This document shows positions 15,103 to 51,759 of a stretch of DNA of 64,000 nucleotides, piece after piece. The translations under genes and the position numbers were made by a program. Each line of letters starts with the position of its first letter. Position 1 is the stretch's first letter. Origin of the DNA: Bacteroidales bacterium. GTDB taxonomy: Bacteria; Bacteroidota; Bacteroidia; Bacteroidales; BM520. The notes below the pieces were generated by a model. It was not told the origin of the DNA. It ran no database searches and saw only the letters and a program-made list of their open reading frames with translations. Location of the stretch: the NCBI GenBank assembly GCA_016285515.1, contig JAEEQW010000011.1:1165-65164 (forward strand), written 5' to 3'.

Positions 15103-17034
15103 ATGAAAAATTTTTTACTATCAGTTTTACTTGCATTTGCAAGTGTTTTTACATTAAGCGCGCAATCATTCGTTAGTACTGAACCTTCAAACAGAAATGC
15201 CCTGTTGGAAGAGTTTACCGGAAGAAATTGCGGATATTGTCCGGACGGACACAGAATAGCCAATGAAATAGCTGCAGCCAATCCGGGTCGTTTCTGGGCA
15301 ATCAACATCCATGCGGGATCTTATGCACCGACAACCTATCCTAATTTCCTTACCCCGGACGGCACAACAGTTCACAATTATTTTTCCATAAGCGGTTATC
15401 CTTGCGGAACAGTCAACAGACCGAGCAAGACCCCTTCCGATCGCTCCCAATGGAATTCACAAGTCAACAGCATTCTTTCACAAACTTCCTGCGCAAATAT
15501 CGCAGCCATAGGTTTCATCAATCCTGACACCAGAATACTGCATCTTATCGTAGAACTTTACTATACCTCAAACAGTTCCTCATCAACAAACTATATGTCG
15601 GCTGCATTGATTCAGGACAACATCCTCGGTTCACAGGCCGGCGGCAGCAGCAATCCTTCACAATGGAATGGCACCACCTACAACCACATGCATGTCTTCA
15701 GAGATATGATTACACCTACGTGGGGTGAAACAGTCAGTGAAACCACCGCAGGCAGCTACCATCAGTTCGTTTATGACTACGAAATCCCTGAAGTCATTGG
15801 CAGCCCCAACGGAGTCAACGTGGTGCTCGAAGACCTCAATGTGATTGTTTTTGTCGCACAGAACAACCTCAATGTGATTACAGCAAATGAAGCCATACTT
15901 TTCATCTCCAACGGTGACAGTGAAATAAACCCTTATGTCTCAGAAATGTCTCAAACATCAGCAATCGAATGTTCAAATGCCCTTAATCTTACCACAAGTA
16001 TTATGAATATAGGTAGTGAGAACCTGAATTCAATGACAATATACTACGACTACAACGGAATATCTGTACCTGTGGAATGGGAAGGCGACCTTGCACAATA
16101 CAGCCTTGTCACGATTGAAAACACATTGCCGGTTACTGTCGGAACAGAAGAAATTACGGTTACTGTTTCATCTGCCAATGGGCAGGAACTTGAATTGGGC
16201 GCTGGAAACTCAAAGAGTTTTGATGTGACGGCTTATCAAGGTTATGCCGGTAATGGTGATAAAATTGTCGTGAAAATATGGCAAGACAAATATGGTAATC
16301 AGACCACTTGGAAAATATTCAATTCGGAAGGTGAAGTGGTAAAGTCTGGCGGCCCTTACAACCAGCTCCCGGGTACTAACACAAAGCTTCAACAGGCAAA
16401 CTTCAATTTCGAATATGATGACTGCTACAGATTTGTCATTTATGATTCGGAGCATGACGGCATCAATAACGGCAACGGTGAAGGACATTATCAGCTCGAA
16501 GATGCTAACGGCAACATTATTTTCTCACATGACGGTGTGTTCACTGACTATGAGATAACTGATTTTTATGCGTCATCTGAAGAACCTAATTATATCACCA
16601 TTAACCCGGATATTATTGGTAGCGGAAGCGTCATCGGCGCCGGTGATTATATCGAAAGCACCAAAGTGGCTTTGCTCGCAGTTTCCGGTTCAAAATCCGT
16701 ATTTATGAATTGGAATGTTAATGGCGAAACTTTTACTGACCCATTATTGGTTATCGATGCTCTCGATGGATATGAAATCACAGCAAATTTCAGCTATGAC
16801 GGCATTGGCGATTATGAAAATGATCTCGAAATCTATCCTAATCCTGCAAACAATTTGCTTACAATAAGCAATGTTAATGTACAACATGTTGTCATTTTCA
16901 ATATTAACGGCCAGGTGATGCTGAAACAGGACTTCTCGAATACTGTCGATGTATCCGCCCTGCCTAAAGGTATGTATTTCATAAAGGTATCATCTGCTGA
17001 TGGTCTCGCCACAAAGAAATTCATAAAAGAATAA
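15103..17034 (+). CDS. Omp28-related secreted protein with T9SS CTD
   Basis: Signal peptide; LLEEFTGRNCGYCPDG, YNHMHVFRDMIT; C-terminal IYPNPA...GMYFIKV...KKFIKE. Confidence 0.85.
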   Translation: MKNFLLSVLLAFASVFTLSAQSFVSTEPSNRNALLEEFTGRNCGYCPDGHRIANEIAAANPGRFWAINIHAGSYAPTTYPNFLTPDGTTVHNYFSISGYPCGTVNRPSKTPSDRSQWNSQVNSILSQTSCANIAAIGFINPDTRILHLIVELYYTSNSSSSTNYMSAALIQDNILGSQAGGSSNPSQWNGTTYNHMHVFRDMITPTWGETVSETTAGSYHQFVYDYEIPEVIGSPNGVNVVLEDLNVIVFVAQNNLNVITANEAILFISNGDSEINPYVSEMSQTSAIECSNALNLTTSIMNIGSENLNSMTIYYDYNGISVPVEWEGDLAQYSLVTIENTLPVTVGTEEITVTVSSANGQELELGAGNSKSFDVTAYQGYAGNGDKIVVKIWQDKYGNQTTWKIFNSEGEVVKSGGPYNQLPGTNTKLQQANFNFEYDDCYRFVIYDSEHDGINNGNGEGHYQLEDANGNIIFSHDGVFTDYEITDFYASSEEPNYITINPDIIGSGSVIGAGDYIESTKVALLAVSGSKSVFMNWNVNGETFTDPLLVIDALDGYEITANFSYDGIGDYENDLEIYPNPANNLLTISNVNVQHVVIFNINGQVMLKQDFSNTVDVSALPKGMYFIKVSSADGLATKKFIKE

Positions 17035-17101: not shown

Positions 17102-18658
17102 ATGGATAAAGTAAAAATTCTGTGGGTTGACGATGAAATAGAACTTCTGAAACCTCATATCATTTTCTTGCAAAACAAAGGATACGACGTCACCACCTCC
17201 AATAACGGTGGTGACGCTTTGGATATAATGTCGAAGGAAGTGTTCGACATAGTGTTTCTTGATGAGCAGATGCCGGGTATTTCAGGCATAGAAACTCTTG
17301 AAAGAATAAAGAGCAAATATCCTCTTGTACCGGTTGTCATGATTACCAAGAGCGAAGAGGAAAATCTGATGGAGAACGCAATTGGCTCAAATATTGCCGA
17401 TTACCTTATTAAACCTGTAAATCCAAATCAGATATTGCTTTGTCTTAAGAAAAATCTTGACAACAGAAAACTTGTTGACGAAAAAAGCACTATGCAGTAT
17501 CAGCAGGCATTCCGTCAAATCGGCATGAATATGTCGTACATTAACAGTTTCGATGAATGGGCCAATGTCTATAAGGAACTGGTTAACTGGGAACTGCGCC
17601 TTGGCTCACCTAGCACCAGCGGTATGTATGAGGTCTTTGAATCGCAGAAGATAGAGGCCAATAACCTTTTTTCGAGATTCATTGAGGCTAACTATGTCAA
17701 CTGGTTGAAAATCAATAACCCTGACCGTCCGCTGATGAATCAGGTAATACTTCAGAACGTTCTTTTCCCGTTAATTCAGAAAAACAAATCATTATTTCTC
17801 ATTGTCGTTGACAATATGCGCTATGACCAGTGGAAGGTGATGGAAAGGATTATCGGCGACATATACCGTACCGACAAGGAATATATGGCATCAAGCATAT
17901 TGCCCACTACTACCCAGTATGCACGAAATGCCTTGTTTGCCGGACTTATGCCTTCAGAAATACAAAAAAGATATCCCAAATATTGGCTCAACGAAGAGGA
18001 TGAAGGGACCAAGAATCAGTATGAGGAATTCTTCCTCGGAGAGAACCTCAAACGACATGGGAAAAGCGATATTAAGTTCACATACAACAAGATACTCAAC
18101 CTGCAAGCAGGTAAAAAATTCGTTGACGCTTTGCCGAATCTGCTGAACAATGAACTAAATGTATTGGTCTATAATTTCGTGGATATGCTGTCACATGCAC
18201 GTACCGAAATGGAAATCATCAAAGAACTTGCAGACGATGATGCTGCATACCGCTCAATAACTGAAACATGGTTCGAACATTCAGCGCTCTACGAAGTGTT
18301 TGAATATCTCGCCTCAAGGCATATTGACATAGTCATAACCACTGACCATGGCTCCGTAAAAGTCGAAGGGCCAGTCAAAATAGTCGGTGACAAGGCCACC
18401 AACACCAACCTTCGTTATAAGGTCGGCAAAAACCTCGATTACAACAAAAAGGATGTCATGGAGATAAAACATCCTGAAGAGATTTATCTTCCAAAGGCCA
18501 ACCTTTCATCAACGTATGTGTTTGCTAAAGGAAGCGATTTCTTTGCATATCCTAACAACTTCAATTATTATGTCAGCTACTATAAGAACACTTTCCAACA
18601 TGGCGGAATCTCCATGCAGGAAATGATTATTCCGGTTGCTGTGCTAAAAGCCAAGTAA
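17102..18658 (+). CDS. porX: T9SS response regulator PorX (receiver + PglZ domain)
   Basis: ILWVDDEI, LDEQMPG, VVDNMRYDQW, LPTTTQYARNA, TTDHG, TFQHGGIS; followed by tsaE as in other Bacteroidota. Confidence 0.93.
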   Translation: MDKVKILWVDDEIELLKPHIIFLQNKGYDVTTSNNGGDALDIMSKEVFDIVFLDEQMPGISGIETLERIKSKYPLVPVVMITKSEEENLMENAIGSNIADYLIKPVNPNQILLCLKKNLDNRKLVDEKSTMQYQQAFRQIGMNMSYINSFDEWANVYKELVNWELRLGSPSTSGMYEVFESQKIEANNLFSRFIEANYVNWLKINNPDRPLMNQVILQNVLFPLIQKNKSLFLIVVDNMRYDQWKVMERIIGDIYRTDKEYMASSILPTTTQYARNALFAGLMPSEIQKRYPKYWLNEEDEGTKNQYEEFFLGENLKRHGKSDIKFTYNKILNLQAGKKFVDALPNLLNNELNVLVYNFVDMLSHARTEMEIIKELADDDAAYRSITETWFEHSALYEVFEYLASRHIDIVITTDHGSVKVEGPVKIVGDKATNTNLRYKVGKNLDYNKKDVMEIKHPEEIYLPKANLSSTYVFAKGSDFFAYPNNFNYYVSYYKNTFQHGGISMQEMIIPVAVLKAK

Positions 18659-29067: not shown

Positions 29068-30270
29068 TTAATTATCAGGATAATTATTTTGAATAATCAT
29101 CATAATAGCCTGGATATCACCAATATCTATTACTCCATCCAGATTAGCATCTGCGTTACTCACATTGAATATAGGCAAATTGTATTCATACAGATAAGCT
29201 GCAACAGCTTGGACATCAGCGACATTGACTACATGGTCATTGTTCGCATCACCTAAAACACCAGGTAATCTGAAGTTAGCAACGAGGTTGCGGTCTTCAA
29301 TAACGACAAATGAAAACGTTGCATCTGTTGAAACCACTGTTTCATCTTCTGTCCAATATAAGAATGTGTAGCCCTCGTTAGCTATGGCTGTCAAGGTGCA
29401 GGTGGTACCCATTTCGTAGGTGCCCGTCCCTGTCACTGTGCCGCTGTTGGCTGGTGCGGCCACAGCCGTAATTTCCTTAACCTCGCAGCATTCGAAAATG
29501 TTGTTGAACACGTACCAACCCTCGGCGTTTTGGTAGTCGCTCAACGAGCCACAAGGCACGTAAACTGGGATGAATTGGTCAATGCTATGAAAGGCACCTT
29601 CACCTACGATTGGCGGCACCTCAGCATGACTTATAATTAGGGAGAATGCCGCAAATTGGAACATGTTGGCTGGGATGCGCTCCACATTCTCGCCGATGAT
29701 GAGTTGACCGGTACAGTAAAAAAACGCGGACCAAGATATGTCAGCACAGTCAGTCATATTATACTCCACAGAGGAAAAAGCGCATTCGCTGAAGGCATCA
29801 CCGCCGATGTAAGTCACAGAATTGGGGATAACCAAGTTTCCATTGAATCCAGAGCAATAGTAGAAGGCGCTACCGCCTATTGTGGTCACGGAATTAGGGA
29901 TAACCAAGTTACCAGTGAATCCATTGCAGTAGCAGAAGGCACAGTCGCTTATTGTGGTCACGGAATTGGGGATGACCAAGTTCCCATTGAATCCAAAGCA
30001 GGCGCCGAAGGCCCATTCGCCTATTGTGGTCACGGAGTAAGTCAATTCGTTGTAAGTAACCATTTCAGGAATCACAAGTTCGCCAGTGGCCTCCGTGCCA
30101 TCCACGTGGCCGTTTACGGTTACGGTTGTTCCGTCATCATTTACGGAGTAGTTGAGGTAGCCCATAGTGAAACTTTGGGCAAAAGCTTTCGTCATCCCCA
30201 CTGCACTCAACAGCAGGACAAACAGGACGGCGCTCACTGACCCTTTAAGTTGTAAAGTGTTTGATTTCAT
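29068..30270 (-). CDS. BspA-type LRR (LRR_5) surface protein + divergent InlB-B-like repeat + C-terminal dockerin, no CTD
   Basis: Signal peptide ending AFAQ; LVIPNSVTTIG..AF..C repeats; PANSGTVTGTGTY..ANEGYTFLYW repeat; GDANNDHVVNVADV...ADANLDGVIDIGDI dockerin. Confidence 0.85.
   Translation of the reverse strand: MKSNTLQLKGSVSAVLFVLLLSAVGMTKAFAQSFTMGYLNYSVNDDGTTVTVNGHVDGTEATGELVIPEMVTYNELTYSVTTIGEWAFGACFGFNGNLVIPNSVTTISDCAFCYCNGFTGNLVIPNSVTTIGGSAFYYCSGFNGNLVIPNSVTYIGGDAFSECAFSSVEYNMTDCADISWSAFFYCTGQLIIGENVERIPANMFQFAAFSLIISHAEVPPIVGEGAFHSIDQFIPVYVPCGSLSDYQNAEGWYVFNNIFECCEVKEITAVAAPANSGTVTGTGTYEMGTTCTLTAIANEGYTFLYWTEDETVVSTDATFSFVVIEDRNLVANFRLPGVLGDANNDHVVNVADVQAVAAYLYEYNLPIFNVSNADANLDGVIDIGDIQAIMMIIQNNYPDN
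29810..30036 (-). repeat. 72-bp tandem repeats encoding 24-aa LRR units (~3 copies)
   Basis: The unit tattgtggtcacggaatt.gggat.accaagtt recurs at 72-nt spacing. Confidence 0.85.
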
Positions 30271-30304
30271 TTTATAGTTATTTTAAGATTGTGTTTTTCT
30301 CTAT

Positions 30305-30725
30305 GGGACTTCTATTTTTATTCTTTTCCCGTCATACCTCCAGACCTCGCGAAGTCCGTTAAACAAAATCTGAAAATACAACATGGCAAAGTTACATGTT
30401 TTTTTTTATTATCAGGTGTTTGTTGCAATTATTTTTGGGGTTTATGGGGGGGTAACATATTGATAATCAATGTATTGTAAATTTCAGTTCATCCCTAATC
30501 GACTAATTTGCTCATATCTCAACATGTTGTAAACCAGACATGTGAAGATAATTTGGGCTGAATTTCGGAGAAATCCGACCGACTGACTGCGCATCCCGTG
30601 CATGTTCCCCTCCATATACACGAACACATGTTCCACCTGTGCCCGAGTCTAAGCTTGTTCTCCTCGTGGCTGTTACGCTGGCGCGGCACCTCCACGAAGC
30701 TGCCATCAATGATAATCCCCTTTAG
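30305..30725 (-). mobile_element. Internally deleted IS5-family element remnant (transposase pseudogene + right end)
   Basis: Minus strand encodes GIIIDGSFVEVPRQRNSHEENK, then after a deletion and frameshift TRAQVEHVFVYMEGNMHG...TCLVYNMLRYEQISRLGMN* (first Asp and final Glu regions of an IS5 DDE transposase). Candidate terminal IR gggacttctattttta at 30305-30320. Confidence 0.75.
30387..30394 (-). promoter_or_regulatory. Outward-facing TAnnTTTG element inside the IS end, upstream of the LRR-dockerin gene
   Basis: TAACTTTG on the minus strand, ~117 nt before the ATG at 30270. Confidence 0.55.
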
Positions 30726-30839
30726 CGTGATTTTTAACTATAACTAATTGTGTTCCAGTTAGAAATATTTATAAGTCGCCAATAAAAAATGTGGGGTTAC
30801 TCTTTTCAGTTGATTAAAGGGAGTCCTTTGACTGTCTCA

Positions 30840-31382
30840 TCATCTTTTTTTGCTGAAAATAAGATTAATGATGGCAACAATATCCAGAGCATTGACAACT
30901 CCGTCTCCGTTTATATCGGCATCGTCAAAGACAAATTCTTCAGGGAGTGCTCCAAAGATATAATTGACGATGATGACGATGTCAAGTGCATTCACAGTAT
31001 CATCGCCATTGGCATCACCAGGCAAGCCGACTTCAGCTTCAAAGTTGGCCACATAGCTTGCGTCTTCGGTCACAGTGAAACTAAAGGTCGGGTTGGTCGA
31101 GACGACTATATTGTTCTTTGTCCAATTAACAAATATGTAACCATCATTAGCTGTAGCAGTCAAGGTACAGGTTATACCAATTTCGTATGTGCCTGCACCG
31201 GTCACAGTGCCACTGTTGGCTGGGTTGACCGTAGCCATAATCACGATACAACTGTCGAAAATGTTAGGGAACTCGTTCCACCCCTCGGCGTTTTGGTAGT
31301 CGCTCATCGAACCGCAAGGCACATAAACGTGGATGCTGTGGTCAATGCCATAAAAGGCATCGGCACCTACGGTTGGCGGCAT
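30840..31382 (-). pseudogene. 5'-truncated paralog of the LRR protein (LRR C-cap + repeat + dockerin)
   Basis: Begins mid-domain (PPTVGADAF..VYVPCGSMSDYQNAEGW) with no signal peptide, directly behind a terminator; dockerin GDANGDDTVNALDI / ADINGDGVVNALDI. Confidence 0.7.
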
Positions 31383-31412
31383 TTTAACCGGATTTTATGG
31401 AATGTCGGGCGC

Positions 31413-31447
31413 AAAAAAAACAGGGTGACCGTTGGGCCACCCTGTTT
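31413..31447 (-). terminator. Intrinsic terminator of the 1675-aa gene
   Basis: Minus strand aaacagggtggcc-caac-ggtcaccctgttttttt. Confidence 0.85.
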
Positions 31448-31471
31448 CGTTATTAATGCAGTTAATGTCAA

Positions 31472-34400
31472 TTACATTTTAACCACATTCTTGACTATTA
31501 CAGAACTGCCTGTGATGATGCGTACCAAGTAAGTACCCTTCTCAAAACCGTTCATGTTAATATTAGCTGATGAACCGTTAATGTCAGCATAACGTGCCAC
31601 AATCTGACCCATCATGTTCGAAATCACTATCTCGCTCATGTTTTCAGCTTCAATAGTAATCATGCCGTGAGTAGGATTAGGATAAACATTAGCTGTCACA
31701 GTCTCTTCGCCAATGCCAAGTGGATCGCCTTCAATGCCATCTACTGTTGCAGCTGTTGGTGTTGAGAAAATCATCTGTTCAATTGTTCCGTCAGCAATAT
31801 TCAGAATAGCATATTTACCTGGTTTAACAGTCTTGCCATCGAGGCTGTACGCCAAGAGCATATAACTGTCAGTACCTTGTACTCTGTCAATTACAGTTGA
31901 GAAACCATCAAACACATCGGTATTGGCTATTTCTATAGGAGCGTCAACCATTATCTGCATAGCTGAAAGTTCTTCTGTCAGTGAGATGTTAAGTACACCG
32001 TTCTCTATTGTATAGATAACAGGTTTGCCACCCATTGATTTATCAGGTTGATTATTTTGAATAATCAACAGAATAGCCTGGATATCACCAATATTTATTA
32101 CACCATCCTGATTAGCATCTGCGTTAATCACATTAAATGTAGGTAAATAGTATCCATACAGATAAGAAGCAACAGCCTGAACATCAGCGACGTTGACTAC
32201 ATTGTCTTCATTCACATCACCTAAAATACCAGGTAATATAAAGTTAGCTACGAGGTCATGGTCATCTGTAATTGCGAAAGTGTATGAAGCATCTGTAGAA
32301 ACTTCTATATCACCTTCTGTCCAATTGACAAACACATAAGAATCATTAGCAATTGCAGTAACTGTCACTAATGTGCCTTCCTCGTAAGTGCCTTCGCCTG
32401 TAACGATACCGCCTTCAGCTGGATTTGCAGTCAAAGTAACAGTATAATAATTGATAATTACTTCCTCGAAGTTTGCAACCAAATCGCGGTCTGACATAAC
32501 TGTGAATGTATAAGAAGCATCCTCTGAAACTACAGCATTGCCTTCGGTCCAGTATGTGAAAATGTAACCGTCATTAGCAGTTGCTGTAACTGTTAATAAT
32601 GTACCTTCCTCGTAAGTGCCTTCGCCTTCAACTGTACCGCCTTCAACTGGATTTGCAGTCAAAGTGACAGTATAATAATTGATAATTACTTCCTCGAAGT
32701 TTGCAACTAAGTCGCGGTCTGCAGTAACTGTGAATGTATAAGAAGCATCCTCTGAAACTACAGCATTGCCTTCGGTCCAGTATGTGAAAATGTAACCGTC
32801 ATTAGCAGTTGCAGTAACTGTTAATAATGTACCTTCCTCGTAAGTGCCTTCGCCTTCAACTGTACCGCCTTCAACTGGATTTGCAGTCAAAGTAACAGTA
32901 TAATAATTGATAATTACTTCTTCGAAGTTTGCAACTAAATCACGGTCTTCAGTGAGTGTGAAAGTATAATAAGCATCCTCAGAAACTATTGCATCACCTT
33001 CTGTCCAGTATGTGAAATAGTAACCGTCATTAGCAGTTGCAACAACTGTTACTTCGGTGCCTTCTTCGTATGTGCCTTCGCCTGTAACTTCACCGCCTTC
33101 AGCTGGATTTGCTGTCAAAGTTACTGTAAAATAATTAACAATTTCTTCTTCGAAGTTTGCAACTAAATCACGGTCTGCTGTAACTGTGAATGTATAAGAA
33201 GCATCTTCAGAAACAACAGCATTGCCTTCTGTCCAGTATGTGAAATAGTAACCGTCATTAGCAGTTGCAACAACTGTTACTTCAGTGCCTTCTTCGTATG
33301 TGCCTTCGCCTGCAACTTCACCGCCTTCAGCTGGATTTGCAACAACAGTGACTTCGTAATAAACAATTACTTCTTCGAAGTTAGCAACGAAATCATGGTC
33401 TTCGTTGATGATAAAAGTATAAGATGCTTCTGTGGAAACTATTTCATCTCCTTCAGTCCAGAAAGCAAATGTGTAACCGTCATTAGCTGAAGCTTCAATA
33501 GTTACTTCAGTGCCTTCTTCGTATGTGCCTTCGCCTGCAACTTCACCGCCTTCAGCTGGATTTGCAGTCAAAGTGACTGTGTAATATACAATTTCTTCCT
33601 CGAAGTTTGCAACCAAATCACGGTCTGTAGTAATTGTGAATGTATAAGAAGCATCCTCTGAAACAACAGCATTGCCTTCTGTCCAGTATGTGAAAATGTA
33701 ACCGTCATTAGCAGTTGCTGTAACTGTTACTGTTGTACCTTCCTCGAATATGCCTTCGCCTTCAACTGTACCGCCTTCAGCTGGATTTGCAGTCAAAGTG
33801 ACAGTATAATAATTAATAATTATTTCTTCGAAGTTAGCGATGAAATCATGGTCTTCGGTGATTGTGAAAGTATATGATGCATCTGTAGAAACTATTGCAT
33901 CACCTTCGGTCCAGTATGCAAATGTGTAACCAGCATTAGCATAAGCTTCAATAGTTACTGATGTGCCATGGATGTAAGTGCCTTCGCCTGTAACTGTACC
34001 ACCATCAACAGGATTTGCAGTTACTGTAACATCGTAAGTGTTTATTGGGAAATGAGCGATGAAATCATGGTCTTCGGTGATTGTGAATGTATAAGAAGCA
34101 TCCTCTGAAACTATTGCGTCACCTTCGGTCCAGTATGCAAATGTGTAACCATCATTAGCTGATGCTTCAATAGTTACTGATGTGCCTTCCTCGAATGTGC
34201 CTTCGCCTGTAACGATACCGCCTTCAGATGGATTTGCAGTCAAAATGACAGTATAATAATTGATAATTACTTCATCGAAGTTAGCGATGAAATCATGGTC
34301 TTCAGTGATTGTGAAAGTATAAGAAGCATTCTCTGAAACTATTGCATCACCTTCGGTCCAGTATGCAAATGTGTAGCCGTCATTAGCTGAAGCTTCAATA

Positions 34401-36499
34401 GTTACTGATGTGCCGTAGTCGTAAGTGCCTGCACCTGTAACTGAACCACCTTCAACAGGATTAGCAGCTACTGTCACATCGTAAGTGTTTAATGTGAAGT
34501 TTGCGATGAAATCATGGTCTTCGGTGATTGTGAAAGTATAAGAAGCATCCTCTGTAACTATTGCGTCACCTTCGGTCCAGTATGCAAATGTGTAGCCGTT
34601 ATTAGCTGAAGCTTCAATAGTTACTGATGTGCCGTAGTCGTAAGTTCCTGCGCCTGTAACTGTACCACCTTCAGCAGGATTTGCAGCTACTGTCACATCA
34701 TAAGTGTTTAATGTGAAGTTTGCGATGAAATCATGGTCTTCAGTGATTGTGAAAGTATAAGAAGCATCCTCTGAAACTATTGCATCACCCTCTGTCCAGT
34801 TAGCAAACGTGTAACCAGCATTAGCATAAGCTTCAATTGTTACTGATGTGCCGTAGTCGTAATTGCCTTCACCTGTAACTGTACCACCTTCAGCAGGATT
34901 TGCAGTTACTGTCACATCATAAGTGTTTATTGCAAAGTATGCGATGAAATCATGGTCATCGGTGATTATAAAAGTATAAGAAGCCTCCTCAGAAACTATT
35001 GCGGCACCTTCTGTCCAGATAGCAAATGTGTAACCAACATTAGCGGTAGCTTCAATAGTTACTGATGTGCCATAATCGTAAGTGCCTGCACCTGCAACTG
35101 AACCACCTTCAGCAGGATATGCTTCTACTGTCACATCGTAAGTGTTTAATGTGAAGTTTGCGATGAAATCATGGTCTTCGGTGATTATGAAAGTATAATA
35201 TGCAACTGTAGAAACCACTGTACCCTCTTCAGTCCAGTTAGCAAATGAGTAACCAATATTAGCGGTAGCAGCAATAGTAACTGATGCGCCTTCCTCGTAT
35301 GTGCCAGCGCCTACAACAATACCGCCTTCAGCAGGATTTGCAGCTACTGTCACATCGTAAGTGTTTATTGTGAAGTAAGCAACAAAATCATGATCTTCAG
35401 TTATTGTGAAAGTATAAGATGCATTTGGAGAAATTACTGCATCACCTTCTTTCCAGAAAGCAAATGTGTAGCCAGCATTAGCAGAAGCTTCAATAGTTAC
35501 TGAAGTGCCTTCTTCGTATGTTCCTGCACCAATAACTGTACCGCCTTCAGTTGGAACTGCTGTCACAGAAACTGTATAATAGTTAACAATTTGTTCATCG
35601 AAGTATGCGATGAAATCATGGTCATCGGTGATTGTGAAAGTATAAGCAGCATCCTCAGAAACTACTGCATCACCTTCTTTCCAGTTAGCAAATGTGTAGC
35701 CGTCATTAGCTGAAGCTTCAATAGTTACTGATGCGCCGTAGTTGTAAGTTCCTGCACCTGTAACTGTACCGCCTTCAGCAGGATTTGCAGCTACTGTCAC
35801 ATCGTAAGTGTTTAATGTGAAGTTAGCGATGAAATCATGGTCTTCGGTGATTGTGAAAGTATAAGATGCAGCTGTAGAAACTACTGCACCCTCTTCTGTC
35901 CAGTTAGCAAATGTGTAACCCACATTAGCGGTAGCGGCAATAGTTACCGAAGCGCCTTCTTCGTATGTTCCTGCACCTGTAACTATACCACCTACAGCCG
36001 GGTTAGCAGCTACTGTCACATCGAATGTGGCAGCAGCTACAGTTAAACTGCCGTTAACCACAATGCAAGAAAGTGGCCCACCTGACATGGAAGAAAGGAC
36101 AACGCTTTCCGGATTTAACTCAAAAGTTCCTGCTTCTGTGCCTATTACATCAAAAGTAAATATAGGGCCGTCATTACCGGAGAATGCAGTTGTTGGAAAT
36201 GCAAACAACAAAACTCTCAAAGTGTTAGTGTTAACAATTTGAGCATTGGACATGTGAGTTGAAGTTCTTGAAGTAAGGGAAAAAGACCCGGATACGTAAG
36301 TAATGGATTCATCCAAAGGAATATCCATTTGGATTGCTGCGGCTACATCTTCATTCGCGAGGTTAACGCTTATGGTAGTCTGAGCATTGACATCGGCATT
36401 GTAATCGCCGATAGAAAGAATGTTCTGCGAGAACGCAAATACGTTCCCAAAAACTAAGATTGCAGACAACAAAAATTTAAAGAATGTAGATTTTTTCAT
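31472..36499 (-). CDS. Large T9SS surface protein: cohesin-like domain, 17 divergent InlB-B-like (Flg_new_2-like) repeats, dockerin, CTD
   Basis: Signal peptide; N-domain SVNLANEDVAAAIQMDIPL...LRVLLFA...FSGNDGPIFTF...VVLS; repeats ANPAEGGTVTGAGTY..ANDGYTF..W; GDVNEDNVVNVADV..ADANQDGVINIGDI; VYPNPT..GTYLVRI..KNVVKM. Confidence 0.88.
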   Translation of the reverse strand: MKKSTFFKFLLSAILVFGNVFAFSQNILSIGDYNADVNAQTTISVNLANEDVAAAIQMDIPLDESITYVSGSFSLTSRTSTHMSNAQIVNTNTLRVLLFAFPTTAFSGNDGPIFTFDVIGTEAGTFELNPESVVLSSMSGGPLSCIVVNGSLTVAAATFDVTVAANPAVGGIVTGAGTYEEGASVTIAATANVGYTFANWTEEGAVVSTAASYTFTITEDHDFIANFTLNTYDVTVAANPAEGGTVTGAGTYNYGASVTIEASANDGYTFANWKEGDAVVSEDAAYTFTITDDHDFIAYFDEQIVNYYTVSVTAVPTEGGTVIGAGTYEEGTSVTIEASANAGYTFAFWKEGDAVISPNASYTFTITEDHDFVAYFTINTYDVTVAANPAEGGIVVGAGTYEEGASVTIAATANIGYSFANWTEEGTVVSTVAYYTFIITEDHDFIANFTLNTYDVTVEAYPAEGGSVAGAGTYDYGTSVTIEATANVGYTFAIWTEGAAIVSEEASYTFIITDDHDFIAYFAINTYDVTVTANPAEGGTVTGEGNYDYGTSVTIEAYANAGYTFANWTEGDAIVSEDASYTFTITEDHDFIANFTLNTYDVTVAANPAEGGTVTGAGTYDYGTSVTIEASANNGYTFAYWTEGDAIVTEDASYTFTITEDHDFIANFTLNTYDVTVAANPVEGGSVTGAGTYDYGTSVTIEASANDGYTFAYWTEGDAIVSENASYTFTITEDHDFIANFDEVIINYYTVILTANPSEGGIVTGEGTFEEGTSVTIEASANDGYTFAYWTEGDAIVSEDASYTFTITEDHDFIAHFPINTYDVTVTANPVDGGTVTGEGTYIHGTSVTIEAYANAGYTFAYWTEGDAIVSTDASYTFTITEDHDFIANFEEIIINYYTVTLTANPAEGGTVEGEGIFEEGTTVTVTATANDGYIFTYWTEGNAVVSEDASYTFTITTDRDLVANFEEEIVYYTVTLTANPAEGGEVAGEGTYEEGTEVTIEASANDGYTFAFWTEGDEIVSTEASYTFIINEDHDFVANFEEVIVYYEVTVVANPAEGGEVAGEGTYEEGTEVTVVATANDGYYFTYWTEGNAVVSEDASYTFTVTADRDLVANFEEEIVNYFTVTLTANPAEGGEVTGEGTYEEGTEVTVVATANDGYYFTYWTEGDAIVSEDAYYTFTLTEDRDLVANFEEVIINYYTVTLTANPVEGGTVEGEGTYEEGTLLTVTATANDGYIFTYWTEGNAVVSEDASYTFTVTADRDLVANFEEVIINYYTVTLTANPVEGGTVEGEGTYEEGTLLTVTATANDGYIFTYWTEGNAVVSEDASYTFTVMSDRDLVANFEEVIINYYTVTLTANPAEGGIVTGEGTYEEGTLVTVTAIANDSYVFVNWTEGDIEVSTDASYTFAITDDHDLVANFILPGILGDVNEDNVVNVADVQAVASYLYGYYLPTFNVINADANQDGVINIGDIQAILLIIQNNQPDKSMGGKPVIYTIENGVLNISLTEELSAMQIMVDAPIEIANTDVFDGFSTVIDRVQGTDSYMLLAYSLDGKTVKPGKYAILNIADGTIEQMIFSTPTAATVDGIEGDPLGIGEETVTANVYPNPTHGMITIEAENMSEIVISNMMGQIVARYADINGSSANINMNGFEKGTYLVRIITGSSVIVKNVVKM
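32240..36028 (-). repeat. 17 intragenic tandem repeats of 219-228 bp
   Basis: Counted from the translation; repeats 15 and 16 are nearly identical in DNA. Confidence 0.92.
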
Positions 36500-38707: not shown

Positions 38708-39787
38708 ATGAGCCTGATAAAGCAACTACTATCGCAGAAGAACAGCATAAATAATTTTGTCCATCTGCTGTGCTGGATTATAATTTTCGCCACACCGCTT
38801 GTTTTCCTTGAAAGGGATGCAGAAGGATACATTGTATGGAGAGATTATCTGTCACACATTTCGGTTCCAATATCCTTTCTGATACTTTTTTATGCCAACT
38901 ATTCAATTATCACTCCAAGTTTCATATTCAACAGCGATATGGATATGAACAAAAAGATAATCTATTTCGCCAGCTTCAACATATATTTGATTCTTCTTGC
39001 CAATCTCTTCATTTTCTTTTGGGAAGGTCAGTTCGGGCCCAATGCATACGATGATGCGCATCTGATACTTGCCCATCCAGTTGGATTTTTCTTGCGCAAC
39101 ACATCACTTTGCATAGTATGTGTGTTGGTAAGTGTGCTATTACGGGCGAGTGCTGATATTAATGTAATGTATGAAAAAATGAAGGAAGTGGAAAAAGCCA
39201 AAACGGAAGCGGAATTGCAAAATCTTAAAAATCAGTTTAACCCACACTTTCTGCTTAACACCCTCAACAACATATATTCATTGATTCAGTTCGACACGGA
39301 AAAAGCACAGAGTGCCGTAAGCGACCTAAGTGACCTTTTGAGATATGCCATATACGATAGCAGACAGGAGTTTGTTCCACTAATCAAAGAGGTTGAGTTT
39401 ATAAAAGATTATATCGAACTGATGAAAATCAGACTCGATGAAAATTCTGTCGTTTCCGAAAATTTTGATGTCCACTCGGAAAAGACGATGATTGCCCCCA
39501 TGTTATTCATTTCATTGATAGAAAATGCCTTCAAACATGGAGTGTCATATAAAGAGGACAACTTTATTGATATTTCCATCTCGGAATCACTTGATGGAAA
39601 AAACGTAATTTGTTCCATTTCAAACAGTTATCACCCTAAGGACAATTATGACAAGAGTGGTTCTGGCATTGGTCTCAAACAAGTCAAACGTCGCCTTGAG
39701 TTAATATATCCTAATCATTATACGTGGAATCAGTCCATAAGCCCCGACAAAAAAGTATACAAATCAGAAATTATTATATCCCTTTAA
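38708..39787 (+). CDS. LytS/YehU-type sensor histidine kinase
   Basis: 4 TM segments; LKNQFNPHFLLNTLNNI, ENAFKHG, GIGL. Confidence 0.92.
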   Translation: MSLIKQLLSQKNSINNFVHLLCWIIIFATPLVFLERDAEGYIVWRDYLSHISVPISFLILFYANYSIITPSFIFNSDMDMNKKIIYFASFNIYLILLANLFIFFWEGQFGPNAYDDAHLILAHPVGFFLRNTSLCIVCVLVSVLLRASADINVMYEKMKEVEKAKTEAELQNLKNQFNPHFLLNTLNNIYSLIQFDTEKAQSAVSDLSDLLRYAIYDSRQEFVPLIKEVEFIKDYIELMKIRLDENSVVSENFDVHSEKTMIAPMLFISLIENAFKHGVSYKEDNFIDISISESLDGKNVICSISNSYHPKDNYDKSGSGIGLKQVKRRLELIYPNHYTWNQSISPDKKVYKSEIIISL

Positions 39788-39789
39788 TC

Positions 39790-40551
39790 ATGAACTGTAT
39801 TATAATCGATGACGAGCCTCTGGCATTGAAACTCATTGAGAGTTATGTGAAAAAGACTGAATTCCTTACTTTGGTTGGAAAATTCAACAGTGCAATTCAG
39901 GCTATGAAAAAGATGAAAATCGATGATGTTGACCTGATATTTCTTGATATCCAGATGCCGGAATTGAATGGGATTGACTTCGCAAAAAACATAAACCCAA
40001 AGTGTGAAATCATCTTTATTACAGCTTTTCAACAATACGCCATTGACAGTTTCAAAGTAAATGTGGTTGACTACCTTTTGAAGCCGGTCTCTTACAACAA
40101 TTTTCTTAAGGCAGCCAAGAAAGCGTATAATTTGTATGAACTCATGAAACATTCCCAAGATATTCAATATCAGACAAATGAAGTTGCAACACATGATTTG
40201 GGGCAACAAAGTGAGCAGATTGAAGAAAACACAAATGATTCATTTTTTATCAAGAGCGGGCACAAGGTCATTCATTTATATTACAATGATATAAATTACA
40301 TTGAAAGCATAAAGGATTATGCCAAGATATACACAAAAAATGATGAATATCCTATAGTTACGCTTACAACCATGAAAGCGCTGGAGGAAAAATTACCGCA
40401 CAATATGTTCATGAGGGTTCATCGTTCATATATCATCAGAAAAGATTGCATCAAGCTCATCGAGCACAACAACATTATCCTTGGGGATGTATATGTGCCC
40501 ATTAGTCTGACGCATCGTAATGAAGTCAAAAAATTCCTCGGGATAAAATAG
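39790..40551 (+). CDS. LytTR family response regulator
   Basis: Start ATG at 39790 (MNCIIIDDEPLA); FLDIQMP, DYLLKP, FMRVHRSYI. Confidence 0.93.
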   Translation: MNCIIIDDEPLALKLIESYVKKTEFLTLVGKFNSAIQAMKKMKIDDVDLIFLDIQMPELNGIDFAKNINPKCEIIFITAFQQYAIDSFKVNVVDYLLKPVSYNNFLKAAKKAYNLYELMKHSQDIQYQTNEVATHDLGQQSEQIEENTNDSFFIKSGHKVIHLYYNDINYIESIKDYAKIYTKNDEYPIVTLTTMKALEEKLPHNMFMRVHRSYIIRKDCIKLIEHNNIILGDVYVPISLTHRNEVKKFLGIK

Positions 40552-47806: not shown

Positions 47807-50800
47807 TTATTGTTTTATAATTTTCTTTGTGACGATATTGTTGTCAATCATGATTCTTACAACGTAAATGCCTTTAGGCAAATCACTGATGCTTACTTTT
47901 TCGCCATTGGTGAGCGATGAATTATGGACCATGGTTCCTGTAACGTTGAAAATCTTCATATCCGCTCTTTCACCATTGAATTTAACAATGAGGTGATTTT
48001 CTGCAGGAACAGGATAAATTGTAACCGCATCATTTTCATAATCATCAACACCTTCACAATTCTTGATTGTAACACCAATAGTTTTAGAAGCAATGTATCC
48101 TACTTCATCGATAGCTGTGAGTGAAATATCGTAATTGTCTTCCGGATCGAATGGTGATGTTGTAATTGTAAGATATCTTGTCGTATCACCTGTTGACCAC
48201 AAATAAGATGCGAATTCGCCTGCATCAAGAACTATTGACTCTCCGACACAAATAGTGGTGTCAGCTGGAAGGTCAATTGACTTAGGACCTACAATATTTA
48301 CGCCGAAATATTTCAGTATTTTTTTAGCGTAATCAAGTCTGTCACCATTACTGTTTTCAACAAGTCCGCCATATTCGAATGATGCGCCTATAGTTTTGTA
48401 AGTGTCTGTAGTGTTCCCGACAGCGCCGCCGAATTCAACAGGAGAATTGACCATAAGTTGTGTGGCATTATTAATAGGTGTAACACAATCGATTTTCCTG
48501 TTGTCACCATTATATTCAATATAAATACCTTCGAAGTCCGTTCCTTCAACACCAACTATATCCGTATAGCCATTAACCCAACTTTCTTCGGAAGGATTAC
48601 CTTCTATACCAAAATACTCTTTCAAGCCATAATCTCTGTCAGCATACCATACTGAACCGCCTTCAAGATATAGGTTTCCGCCGTTCTGAAGGTAGTTGAT
48701 GAGAGCCTGCTGTTCGGATTCCTTGAGAGCTGTATTATTGTTGTACACACCGGCACAGAGGAAAACAATGTTATATGAGTTAAGTGTTCGTTGAGAAGGA
48801 AGCGTCGTCTTATAATCGACATTGGCACCGATGAAGCTGAACAGGTCGGACCTCAAAACAGGCATTGAGTTTTTCAGCTTATCAAGGTCAACCAGTAAGA
48901 TTTTTGAATCACCAATCATATAACATATTTCCTTTTGGTAGCTAATATTCATTTCATCACTCAGATGAGGCAGGAAATGAATGATAAAGCCGTCAATGCA
49001 ATCACCTACAGTAAAATCAAAACTGCATGTAACGCTTTCGCCTGATGCAATTTCATCAAAATGGATGACAGCATCTGAATAATTTATGACAGCATCAACA
49101 TAATCCAAGTGAATATCGACGTTTCGCATTGGGTATTTGCCTGAATTGGAATATGTTAATGTAATGGTTCCTGTTTCACCTTGTTCGATTACACCGTCTT
49201 TATCTCCCGTTTTTTCAACTATGGAATAACTATCCAATGAAATGACAGGTGCCTCGATTGTCATAAATGTTTCGAAAGAAATATTATTGCTTAAATGGAA
49301 TTTGATAACAACGTCTTTGCTTATTGCGGTGTTTGGATTTATATATGCATAAAGCCCTTCAACATTACCTGATTCACCGGCAGCCAGTTCCTGAAGTCCG
49401 AAGGATTGTACGCCGAGTTCCACAAAATCATCATCACATGTTATGGTAACCTGTTCGCCAGGGAATGGTGCCTCACTCAGGTTGGTAGCCCTTATTATAA
49501 AATCAACCCTATCACCGTAATTTATGATTCCATCACTGTTGCCTTGTGAATCGGAATAGTTAATCGTAAAATCGATTACAGGAGTAAAGTTAAGCACTCC
49601 GACTGAAGTGATGAACGGAATCATGTTGTCAGCCATTATATTGACCTGCATTGTGTCACCTGAAACGAGGTTTAATGATTGGAAATCAATGGTGAAATTA
49701 CCGTTTTGAGTGTTGCCTTTATATATGATGGCATTGTCTTTTGTTATGACAATTTCCGCTTTGTCAATATTGCAACCGATGTTCCAATCCTTCAGGGTGT
49801 TAGGAACAGCAGAAACAATAGTTGCCAATATTGGATAAGGTTTTTCAATCCAGACTTTCATCGATGGATCGCCGAACAGTGTAACCTCATAATTTACAAA
49901 TCTGAAATTGTCTCCATCATAACCCATAACCCAACTTGTATATTTTTCCTTTGAATATCTGTTGGCATCACCAATTTTTGTGTATCCGCGGTGGTATAAG
50001 CCGTCAAAGAAAAGTCTGTCATAATATTGTGATGAAACGTTTGTGTTTCCTGGCATGTACCATCCGTAGCGAGAATTGCCGATCTGGGCGACATGGCCGG
50101 TTTCGAGAGTTGTGAAAACCTCTGCAAAACAATCCGACTTGCCATACGCCGAATAACCTTCGCCTCTGTTGTCGAATGAGCCGTTGTAGCAGCCCTGCGA
50201 ATATTGGATGGTAAGTGTATGATTAACGCCATTATTTTTGAAATGACTGGTTGTCAACGCTGAAGCATTAAGTTTCATATTGTATTCCACATTGGAGTGC
50301 CCAAGGTGATTCACAACATGAACACCATCTTTGCTGTACACATCATAAAGGTCGCTTCCCACCCAAGTTGTATCTCTCTCATATAATCTTCTCACGCTTA
50401 CGTTGGAAGGAATACCGCCGGTTGTAAAGCCATGGTTGCTTGTACCATACGCAATTTCATCCTTGTAGGTTCCGCCCCATGTGACGATTTCGGAGTTGAG
50501 GTTTTCACCAACCATCAGATCCCTTTCAACTTCGTTGGCAACAGGTGATGACTGATAAAGCATCAGTTTGTTTGTATGTCTCGTCACCTCAGCAGGGCTG
50601 TCAGCACAGATTCTGCCCACTGACACTTCAGCATAGAAATCCGCTTCAAATGAATCTTCACCAAATAAATTGTCTCCGTCTGTATTCCATGTGCCGTCAA
50701 GGTTTGAATAGTAAAGGTCGGATGGGATTGAAGGATCACCACCTGCATAAAAACCACGACACGGAATGATGTTCTGCTCAGGTGTGGCCACATCTGCATC

Positions 50801-51640
50801 GCCTACAAGCAAAAGATAGTCTATCCCATAATTGTTGTAATAATCCTTGACACAATTTCTGATTTTTTCCTGACTGTCATTGCCTTGATAATACTGATAA
50901 ATGTGATCTGTAAGCTCAACAGCGCAATAGTAGCCCTGATTTGTCTTAAAGTTGATGTATGGCTGCAAAGCTGACAATAATGTGTCGGCTGTGATGAAAA
51001 GAATGTCGTAATCAGTGGATTTCCTTTCCGGATAAGTGTATGATGACAATGCAGATGAATCGTCAGCAATGTCAGCAATACGTCTCATTGTCTCGGCATC
51101 GTTATAAGCATTCATCTCGGCTTTCTGAGACTTGGAGGTATTTTCAAATGTGATGGTTTTTATGCATCTGACAATGTTTTCGGAAGGATAATATTTAGCA
51201 GGATAAATTTTTACCGTGGTTATGCCATGGCCTCTCAGAAACTGAGTGTTTGAACCGAACACGTTTTCGGCAGGATATGCTGACTTGGAGCCGTATATCT
51301 CAGCATTTTCAGTTCTTTCCACAACATCTGAAGGATGTGAAATAGGAATGGGGTTGCCCGCCGGCAAAAGACGTCCTTCTATTTCTTCGTCATAATATTC
51401 AACCGACTTGATAAGTACCTTTCCTGAAACGTTGTTTTGTTTCTCAAGAATGTTGTACTGATAGAATGGAATGACCGGATATCCGGGAGCGGCAACATCA
51501 AAACAGTTGGAGTAAACCAATTCAATATAATTACCGTTCTGTTTGACCTGAGGATATTCAAAATTAATCGTAACTTCCTGAGCCACAACAAATAATGTCA
51601 TCAAAAACGACAATGCAAATACAGAAATAAATCTTTTCAT
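47807..51640 (-). CDS. C25 (gingipain-family) cysteine peptidase with propeptide and T9SS CTD
   Basis: Start MKRFISVF at 51640; YLLLVGD, SDLYY, VGRI, NHLGHS (His), SQGCY (Cys), LFGDPS; IYPVPA..GIYVVRI..KKIIKQ. Confidence 0.88.
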   Translation of the reverse strand: MKRFISVFALSFLMTLFVVAQEVTINFEYPQVKQNGNYIELVYSNCFDVAAPGYPVIPFYQYNILEKQNNVSGKVLIKSVEYYDEEIEGRLLPAGNPIPISHPSDVVERTENAEIYGSKSAYPAENVFGSNTQFLRGHGITTVKIYPAKYYPSENIVRCIKTITFENTSKSQKAEMNAYNDAETMRRIADIADDSSALSSYTYPERKSTDYDILFITADTLLSALQPYINFKTNQGYYCAVELTDHIYQYYQGNDSQEKIRNCVKDYYNNYGIDYLLLVGDADVATPEQNIIPCRGFYAGGDPSIPSDLYYSNLDGTWNTDGDNLFGEDSFEADFYAEVSVGRICADSPAEVTRHTNKLMLYQSSPVANEVERDLMVGENLNSEIVTWGGTYKDEIAYGTSNHGFTTGGIPSNVSVRRLYERDTTWVGSDLYDVYSKDGVHVVNHLGHSNVEYNMKLNASALTTSHFKNNGVNHTLTIQYSQGCYNGSFDNRGEGYSAYGKSDCFAEVFTTLETGHVAQIGNSRYGWYMPGNTNVSSQYYDRLFFDGLYHRGYTKIGDANRYSKEKYTSWVMGYDGDNFRFVNYEVTLFGDPSMKVWIEKPYPILATIVSAVPNTLKDWNIGCNIDKAEIVITKDNAIIYKGNTQNGNFTIDFQSLNLVSGDTMQVNIMADNMIPFITSVGVLNFTPVIDFTINYSDSQGNSDGIINYGDRVDFIIRATNLSEAPFPGEQVTITCDDDFVELGVQSFGLQELAAGESGNVEGLYAYINPNTAISKDVVIKFHLSNNISFETFMTIEAPVISLDSYSIVEKTGDKDGVIEQGETGTITLTYSNSGKYPMRNVDIHLDYVDAVINYSDAVIHFDEIASGESVTCSFDFTVGDCIDGFIIHFLPHLSDEMNISYQKEICYMIGDSKILLVDLDKLKNSMPVLRSDLFSFIGANVDYKTTLPSQRTLNSYNIVFLCAGVYNNNTALKESEQQALINYLQNGGNLYLEGGSVWYADRDYGLKEYFGIEGNPSEESWVNGYTDIVGVEGTDFEGIYIEYNGDNRKIDCVTPINNATQLMVNSPVEFGGAVGNTTDTYKTIGASFEYGGLVENSNGDRLDYAKKILKYFGVNIVGPKSIDLPADTTICVGESIVLDAGEFASYLWSTGDTTRYLTITTSPFDPEDNYDISLTAIDEVGYIASKTIGVTIKNCEGVDDYENDAVTIYPVPAENHLIVKFNGERADMKIFNVTGTMVHNSSLTNGEKVSISDLPKGIYVVRIMIDNNIVTKKIIKQ

Positions 51641-51759
51641 CTTATTATTATTTTTTATTATTTTCAAAAAGAAATTTAAACGACAAAAATAAGTAATTTT
51701 ATGTTCTTAGTTGATTTTTATTTTTATTTTTAACTAATTTTGCAGAAACTTTACAAGAA

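Follow-up and report, generated by a model that had tools for sequence, protein, structure and literature searches.

A candidate cohesin-dockerin surface display system joined to type IX secretion in a ruminant-gut Bacteroidales genome

Cohesin-dockerin assembly is textbook knowledge for the cellulosomes of Gram-positive bacteria, and the locus described here, positions 29068-36499 of a stretch of 64,000 nucleotides (nt) of Bacteroidales DNA (the window), raises the question which function the same modules may have in a Gram-negative host. All three open reading frames (ORFs) of the locus are co-oriented on the minus strand: P0003, a long protein with a cohesin, a dockerin and a type IX secretion system (T9SS) sorting signal; P0001, a leucine-rich repeat (LRR) protein ending in a dockerin; and P0002, a short ORF with a dockerin. 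We propose, with a probability of roughly 0.68, that P0003 is the monovalent stalk scaffoldin or adaptor of a T9SS-wired cohesin-dockerin surface display system and that P0001 is dockerin-tagged adhesin cargo. The novelty would lie in coupling a known mode of display to the T9SS and turning it to proteolysis and adhesion.

Cohesin, dockerins and sorting cassette of the stalk protein

In a preliminary description of this DNA, P0003 was read as a signal peptide followed by an N-terminal cohesin-like domain, 17 repeats, a dockerin, a second short beta-domain and a T9SS C-terminal sorting domain (CTD), and searches with Pfam, TIGR04183 and Tandem Repeats Finder returned the same layout (Table 1). 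With signal peptide and CTD in a genome that has a T9SS, P0003 qualifies as T9SS type A cargo, whereas P0001 and P0002 lack a CTD. The T9SS itself is evident from the translocon gene sprA (SprA, 545 bits) and from 68 CTD matches above the cut-off in the genome. The module make-up of the three proteins is far beyond chance. At the DNA level, the stalk comprises 16.8-16.9 copies of a 219-228 bp period with 79-81% matches. Several C-terminal repeat units are near-identical as protein, and collapse or expansion during assembly could alter the count of 17.

The N-terminal domain of P0003 is a genuine cohesin, both by its beta-sandwich (jelly-roll) fold and by its homology to cohesins. The module alone matched the Pfam Cohesin family (PF00963) over profile positions 3-138 of 139 with 19.2 bits and an E-value of 1.5e-3, compared to a cut-off of 24.1 bits. 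It has 23 further significant matches in its own genome at 30-52% identity, and paralogues exceed the cut-off, with modules at 33.9 and 29.5-29.6 bits and a protein of 1239 amino acids (aa) at 58.8 bits. A profile of 23 cohesin modules found a Ruminococcus flavefaciens cohesin as best match in the PDB (E 1.5e-7), and 9 of the 12 listed matches were cohesins or scaffoldins. The AlphaFold2 (AF2) model of the module reached a predicted local confidence (pLDDT) of 95.7 and a predicted template modelling score (pTM) of 0.88, and among the Foldseek matches listed every row was a cohesin or cohesin-like module. The top match was the non-cellulosomal cohesin 2xdh from Archaeoglobus fulgidus (E 2.3e-11, TM score 0.82, 15% identity), which shares the non-cellulolytic setting but comes from an archaeon with neither a T9SS nor a repeat stalk.

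Homologues of this cohesin are rare: among 5.8 billion protein clusters, only 15 with lengths of 921-2932 aa were found at E <= 1e-5. The stored Pfam lists of the closest homologues do not contain PF00963; these cohesins thus lack annotation in databases, and similar systems have therefore probably been overlooked. Four proteins (P0013-P0016) are C10 peptidases that match the P0003 cohesin and have a dockerin in their stored Pfam lists, one of them under the NCBI name 'C10 family peptidase [Bacteroidales bacterium]'; these enzymes would be both scaffold and cargo. The source genome itself encodes a C10 peptidase with cohesins (L038, Table 1).

The dockerins of all three ORFs are real. Direct reading and alignment revealed a duplicated D-x-N-x-D...D calcium loop followed by a helix in each of them, and G7, D8, D19, D41, N43, D45 and D52 are invariant across 27 aligned dockerins. 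Pfam matches together with the two duplicated calcium-binding loop-helix segments place P0001, P0002 and P0003 in dockerin type I (PF00404); the P0003 dockerin scored 27.0 bits in the whole protein and 31.3 bits in the C-terminal piece alone. The P0001 and P0003 dockerins share 76% identity with one another and 31-48% with the other dockerins; in the dockerin tree they pair with 100/98 support on its longest inner branch (1.34 changes per column), while the P0002 dockerin falls into a different group. Because of this similarity and the supported pairing, the dockerins of P0001 and P0003 probably share one specificity. The cohesin tree is star-like, with an end branch of 0.78 for the P0003 cohesin.

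Behind its dockerin, P0003 carries the domain that had been described as a second short beta-domain. The domain is present, and is better regarded as the middle part of a dockerin-X-CTD cassette that forms the fixed C-terminus of eight proteins in the genome. A profile of the X domain found exactly these eight places at E <= 0.01 and nothing else in the genome, and in 8/8 cases a dockerin and a CTD strictly accompany X. The cassette was modelled with a pLDDT of 78.5 (85-93 in the X part). In VIA comparisons, residues 2-65 of the model matched the dockerin CaDoc0917 (Z 6.4, 33% identity), and residues 180-256 matched T9SS CTDs, namely that of PorZ (Z 8.3) and those of substrates in complex with the T9SS translocon. 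For X itself, approximately residues 70-174, all seven covering rows were cohesins at middling Z scores of 6.2-7.4, and hhalign gave a probability of only 51% against the cohesin profile. With the whole three-domain model, Foldseek returned mostly generic two-sandwich matches, for example to a single-chain variable fragment (scFv). Considering the middling Z scores and the hhalign result, we tentatively call X a short, possibly cohesin-derived, 'cohesin-like' beta-sandwich. In type II and III dockerins, the usual order of the dyad is X followed by the dockerin, so that the order in P0003 is the reverse.

Scaffoldins and dockerin-bearing proteins in the genome and its relatives

The source genome (G000; 2.58 Mb, 54 contigs, 98% complete) contains 24 cohesin modules in six ORFs, and 20 of the 24 reside on three CTD-bearing scaffoldins of 2467, 3777 and 1239 aa with eight, seven and five modules, respectively, in which cohesins are interleaved with B-repeats. 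P0003 has a single cohesin plus the cohesin-like X domain. A small single-cohesin protein without CTD (L039) is encoded directly downstream of the gene for an S8 peptidase with a dockerin (L032), with a 16-nt overlap, and the two are a candidate cognate pair.

Dockerins above the cut-off were found in 37 ORFs and one small fragment. The large majority (28/37) end at the dockerin, eight carry the dockerin-X-CTD cassette, and a single one (L011) has its dockerin near the N-terminus; the CTD-less, dockerin-terminal architecture, for which the preliminary description had suggested a genome-wide count, is thus the rule in this genome. With the exception of two fragments, all 32 dockerin ORFs that are not cut by a contig end start with a Sec-type signal peptide. 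Pfam domains in the 34 dockerin ORFs outside the window include numerous peptidases, namely seven Peptidase_C25 with propeptide, two C10 with Spi inhibitor prodomain, two S8 and one M14. Additional matches were to one Porphyromonas-type arginine deiminase (PAD), two Omp28, two BNR, one esterase, one beta-helix and one LRR_5 protein; six ORFs have only repeat, immunoglobulin-like (Ig-like) or similar non-catalytic domains and eight have only the dockerin.

The locus had been described as non-cellulosomal and free of carbohydrate-active enzyme (CAZyme) domains. Pfam detected no CAZyme domain in P0001, P0002 or P0003, no glycoside hydrolase domain in any of the 37 dockerin ORFs, and no carbohydrate-binding module (CBM) in P0003 or the five other cohesin proteins. 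Since a cellulosome in the strict sense combines dockerin-borne glycoside hydrolases with a CBM-bearing scaffoldin, the kit is cellulosome-like in its assembly logic yet no cellulosome.

In other members of the kit's cargo families, e.g. the Omp28-CTD and C25-CTD proteins within the window, a CTD takes the position of the dockerin, so that the dockerin seems to act as an alternative address at the C-terminus. The C25-CTD protein is a gingipain-like Peptidase_C25 of 1286 aa, and the seven dockerin-tagged C25 peptidases elsewhere in the genome are its paralogues. The gene for the Omp28 protein adjoins a gene for a protein with a response-regulator receiver and a PglZ domain, which we take to be the architecture of the T9SS regulator PorX.

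The distribution of the system was analyzed with the cohesin profile and the Pfam dockerin in 61 related genomes, comprising eight of the genus including G000, five of the sister genus and 48 from other families of the order. Within the genus, cohesin-profile and dockerin hits were obtained in G000 (24 and 36), G002 (8 and 19) and G005 (21 and 24), and neither module was found in the other five congeners or in the five sister-genus genomes. Co-occurrence in the same three of eight congeneric genomes links cohesins and dockerins. Among the 48 genomes from other families, four had a cohesin-profile match, nine a dockerin match and three both, with one or two matches each except for G060 with two cohesin-profile and eight dockerin hits.

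The N-terminal part of P0003 has a syntenic orthologue with 88-89% identity in G002:C43, where the contig ends inside the gene, and its cohesin has a further syntenic match in the record 'MAG: Bacteroidales bacterium ... Water_buffalos_Abomasum'. The dockerin-X-CTD cassette recurs with 83% identity on a different protein body in G005:C96 (L046), in which B-repeats alternate with a Cys- and Trp-rich domain of about 110 aa and of unknown family. In G005:C105, a 943-aa ORF (L052) begins like P0001 (59% identity over aa 1-99) and continues with B-repeats and two cohesin modules, which shows that such modules are shuffled freely. Synteny with the cohesin-free genomes G001, G003 and G006 was considered as evidence for an insertion of the locus and was dropped, because the flanking thioesterase/HAD gene is split there, lies elsewhere and has 50-56% identity.

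Proposed assembly, alternatives and known systems

We envisage that P0003 is exported by the Sec pathway and then, by virtue of its CTD, by the T9SS to the cell surface, where the 17 B-repeat domains would hold its single cohesin far from the cell. The dockerin-X dyad beside the anchor would allow P0003 to plug into another cohesin, for example of the 8-, 7- or 5-cohesin scaffoldins, so that P0003 may be a monovalent adaptor instead of the autonomous pole that was pictured initially. P0001 would reach the surface by docking onto a cohesin in place of having its own CTD. Because the named cargo across the genome consists mainly of peptidases and adhesins, the assembly would serve proteolysis and adhesion rather than the breakdown of cellulose.

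Several observations weigh against this proposal. T9SS substrates were described in a review, as far as its accessible part goes, as needing a folded CTD and being moved in the folded state, and therefore the CTD-less cargo has no established way out of the cell. The P0003 cohesin scored alone falls below the Pfam cut-off, and no cohesin-dockerin pairing can be inferred from the trees, given the star-like cohesin tree. Being near-copies that share the longest inner branch, the P0001 and P0003 dockerins may both target a cohesin other than that at the tip of P0003. Additionally, adjacency of stalk gene and LRR gene was not seen in the only readable relative, since the cassette gene in G005:C96 has a different downstream gene, and the three genomes that contain the system are kin, so that their shared modules may go back to one gain. 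Contigs from RNA libraries (see below) are compatible with expression of the genes and are no proof of transcription. A complex prediction for the P0003 cohesin with two calcium ions and the P0001 dockerin, run without controls, yielded scores of 0.18 and 0.17, compared to a mark of 0.32, and counts neither in favour of binding nor against it.

The CTD-less dockerin proteins (28/37, including P0001) might, while still in the periplasm, bind to CTD-bearing cohesin scaffolds and pass the T9SS translocon as passengers, a route that we consider rather unlikely. It would constitute a hitch-hiker pathway for a secretion system that is thought to need a CTD on every substrate, and the dockerin-X-CTD cassette with its cohesin-like X would then represent a minimal, built-in version of the same coupling. 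Alternatively, the scaffolds and dockerin proteins could assemble within the periplasm, with outer-membrane vesicles or lysis as their only way out of the cell. The Sec signals on dockerin-only proteins without CTD fit such an internal assembly, as does the 185-aa single-cohesin protein without CTD that is encoded next to the S8-dockerin gene. However, each of the three multi-cohesin scaffoldins, as well as P0003, has a T9SS CTD, a signal that directs proteins to export and to attachment at the surface, and propeptide-bearing C25 and C10 peptidases are extracellular in known cases, which makes an exclusively internal assembly very improbable.

The tight pairing of the P0001 and P0003 dockerins on their long branch and the side-by-side position of the two genes would also be expected of a self-assembling fibre, in which the tip cohesin of P0003 is specific for this dockerin subtype, P0003 polymerizes head-to-tail, as the preliminary description had considered, and P0001 caps or decorates the filament. 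The long end branch of the P0003 cohesin and the conservation of the dockerin subtype in a congener, within the cassette of G005:C96, point in the same direction. Yet local duplication alone would account for the likeness of the two dockerins, and an anchored P0003 would present its dockerin next to the CTD at the membrane, far from the tip of another copy. Moreover, in the genome with the closely related cohesin orthologue (G002), the best match to the dockerin-X-CTD cassette has 36% identity (55% in the dockerin part), with the limitation that the contig ends inside the gene. We therefore regard a fibre as improbable. It is harder still to reconcile the data with the absence of any docking, i.e. 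with cohesin- and dockerin-like modules acting as structural, calcium-stabilized spacers, P0003 being a repetitive T9SS adhesin and P0001 a periplasmic or vesicle protein. Six of the 61 genomes have a single dockerin match and no cohesin-profile match, as expected for such a scenario, and the role of dockerins in rumen Bacteroidetes was called undefined in the available part of an earlier study (PMC7480376). In the present genome, in contrast, 24 cohesins and 37 dockerin ORFs represent matching expansions that within the genus occur only in the same three genomes, multi-cohesin scaffoldins are present, the calcium ligands are conserved in all dockerins, and the dockerins are placed at the C-terminus as in cellulosomal cargo, leaving this explanation with little weight.

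The surface of Porphyromonas gingivalis displays C25 peptidases together with a PAD-type deiminase and LRR adhesins, a set that resembles the contents of the present kit. Each cargo protein of P. gingivalis has its own CTD, whereas most cargo of the kit has a dockerin and would be held by cohesins. The CTD-directed export and surface attachment represented by the T9SS complexes of P. gingivalis (RgpB CTD, 5ag8; PorZ, 5m11) are features that P0003 has in common with them. With the scaffoldins and adaptor scaffoldins of Clostridia and Ruminococcus flavefaciens (PDB 5n5p, 1ohz, 4fl4), P0003 shares the fold and homology of its cohesin and the adaptor logic of a cohesin and a dockerin on one protein, and the kit shares the C-terminal, type-I-like dockerins with duplicated calcium loops. 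It differs from these cellulosomes in its Gram-negative host, in an anchor that is a T9SS CTD instead of S-layer homology (SLH) domains or sortase attachment, in spacers of the InlB-B type, in the dockerin being followed by X domain and CTD, and in that neither CBM nor glycoside hydrolase cargo was found. LRR_5-dockerin proteins similar to P0001 in domain content were listed as Ruminococcus cellulosome components in the accessible part of PMC7480376.

The closest parallel found is a metagenome-assembled genome (MAG) of Candidatus Stygibacter (Cloacimonadota), for which a CTD-bearing cohesin scaffoldin was inferred in silico only (Williams et al. 2021, PMC8542988). As far as the available text of that study goes, signal-peptide enzymes with C-terminal dockerins include a gingipain-like C25 and an S8 peptidase, as in the present kit; the organism belongs to another phylum, its scaffoldin carries CBM2/CBM3, its cargo includes GH18 and GH57 enzymes, and neither a mono-cohesin stalk protein nor a dockerin-X-CTD cassette is described there. 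Metagenomes were reported to contain dockerins of rumen Bacteroidetes, including a C10-dockerin protein (Bensoussan et al. 2017, PMC6487960, available part). In the literature outside subscription journals, we found no account of T9SS-anchored cohesin scaffoldins in Bacteroidota, of a dockerin-X-CTD cassette or of T9SS export in piggy-back fashion. A T9SS-joined kit with gingipain-like and streptopain-like peptidases and adhesins in a Bacteroidales bacterium of the ruminant gut suggests that proteolysis and adhesion in the rumen are organised at the cell surface. It offers a concrete test case for how CTD-less proteins reach the surface of a T9SS organism, and its modules could be employed as orthogonal docking pairs to display proteins on the surface of Bacteroidota.

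Neighbouring genes and occurrence of the locus

Table 1. Coordinates of features in the analysed region, in the window around it and at selected loci elsewhere in the source genome.
Feature	Position	Strand	Basis
P0001, 400-aa BspA-type LRR protein: signal peptide, LRR_5, one Flg_new_2 B-repeat, C-terminal dockerin, no CTD	29068..30270	-	Pfam
P0001 dockerin	29101-29256	-	Dockerin_1, 22.9 bits, exactly at the cut-off; 27.6 bits in six-frame search
DDE transposase remnant, last 41 profile positions only	30484..30648	-	PF01609, 23.8 bits, E 4.4e-5
P0002, 180-aa 5'-truncated remnant of LRR/B-repeat/dockerin gene	30840..31382	-	Flg_new_2 and Dockerin_1, 43.4 bits
P0002 dockerin	30858-31022	-	Dockerin_1, 43.4 bits
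P0003, 1675-aa stalk protein: signal peptide, cohesin, 17 B-repeats, dockerin, X domain, T9SS CTD	31472..36499	-	Pfam, TIGR04183, direct reading
P0003 T9SS type A CTD	31484..31687	-	PF18962, 44.6 bits; TIGR04183, 46 bits
P0003 X domain, short cohesin-like beta-sandwich between dockerin and CTD, ~105 aa	31718..32041	-	Model, VIA
P0003 dockerin, aa 1426-1475	32075..32224	-	Pfam Dockerin_1; VIA
P0003 stalk, 17 Flg_new_2 (divergent InlB B-repeat) domains	32241..36019	-	Pfam, E 1.2e-253; Tandem Repeats Finder
Near-identical C-terminal repeat units of P0003	32241-33600	-	
P0003 N-terminal cohesin, aa 24-160	36020..36430	-	Pfam, paralogues, PDB profile search, AF2, Foldseek
P0003 Sec signal peptide, aa 1-24, ...VFAFS/QN (cleavage site inferred)	36428..36499	-	Read from sequence; hydrophobic N-terminus
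Omp28 protein with T9SS CTD	15103-17034		
Response-regulator receiver and PglZ domain protein	17102-18658	+	
LytTR-type two-component pair	38708-40551	+	His_kinase, then Response_reg and LytTR
Gingipain-like Peptidase_C25 with T9SS CTD	47807-51667	-	
L011, 378 aa: dockerin right after signal peptide (aa 34-80), then ~290 aa of no known family; only N-terminal dockerin of the genome	G000:C38:14471-15604		
L032, S8 peptidase-dockerin gene	G000:C19:30313-32940	-	
L038, C10 (streptopain-like) peptidase carrying two cohesin modules, the second cut by the contig end	G000:C45:83872-86604		
L039, 185-aa single-cohesin protein, Cys-containing signal peptide, no CTD	G000:C19:29774-30328	-	Pfam cohesin, 29.6 bits

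P0001 belongs to the BspA-type LRR proteins, having a signal peptide and two stretches of LRR_5 (PF13306; E 4.9e-31, 107.7 bits). Its stop codon lies six residues past the end of the dockerin, in agreement with the initial reading that the protein ends there without a CTD. For P0002, in contrast, the original count of three dockerin genes does not hold: its dockerin is intact, and the ORF aligns to residues 218-393 of P0001 with 55% identity, but it lacks a signal peptide and the LRR part, and stops just upstream close the reading frame. P0002 is therefore the 5'-truncated remnant of such a gene and no intact third gene. The remnant of a DDE transposase between the P0001 gene and P0002 suggests a rearrangement of the locus mediated by an insertion sequence (IS).

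Ruminant gut metagenomes contain DNA of the locus, in 20 holder runs that belong to 12 studies. RNA libraries of three studies yielded contigs with both genes, P0001 at about 99% identity (e.g. 805 nt with 6 differences) and the P0003 cassette in contigs of 679-712 nt with 25-27 differences. Over 30845-31024 in P0002 they comprise short pieces only, with 8-12% differences, and they do not cover 31180-31397 at the start of this remnant. The block is flanked by housekeeping genes, PNPase and aldose epimerase on one side and thioesterase/HAD and AP endonuclease on the other. A LytTR-type two-component pair is encoded two genes upstream of the stalk gene, and its histidine kinase is syntenic in a relative (L056).

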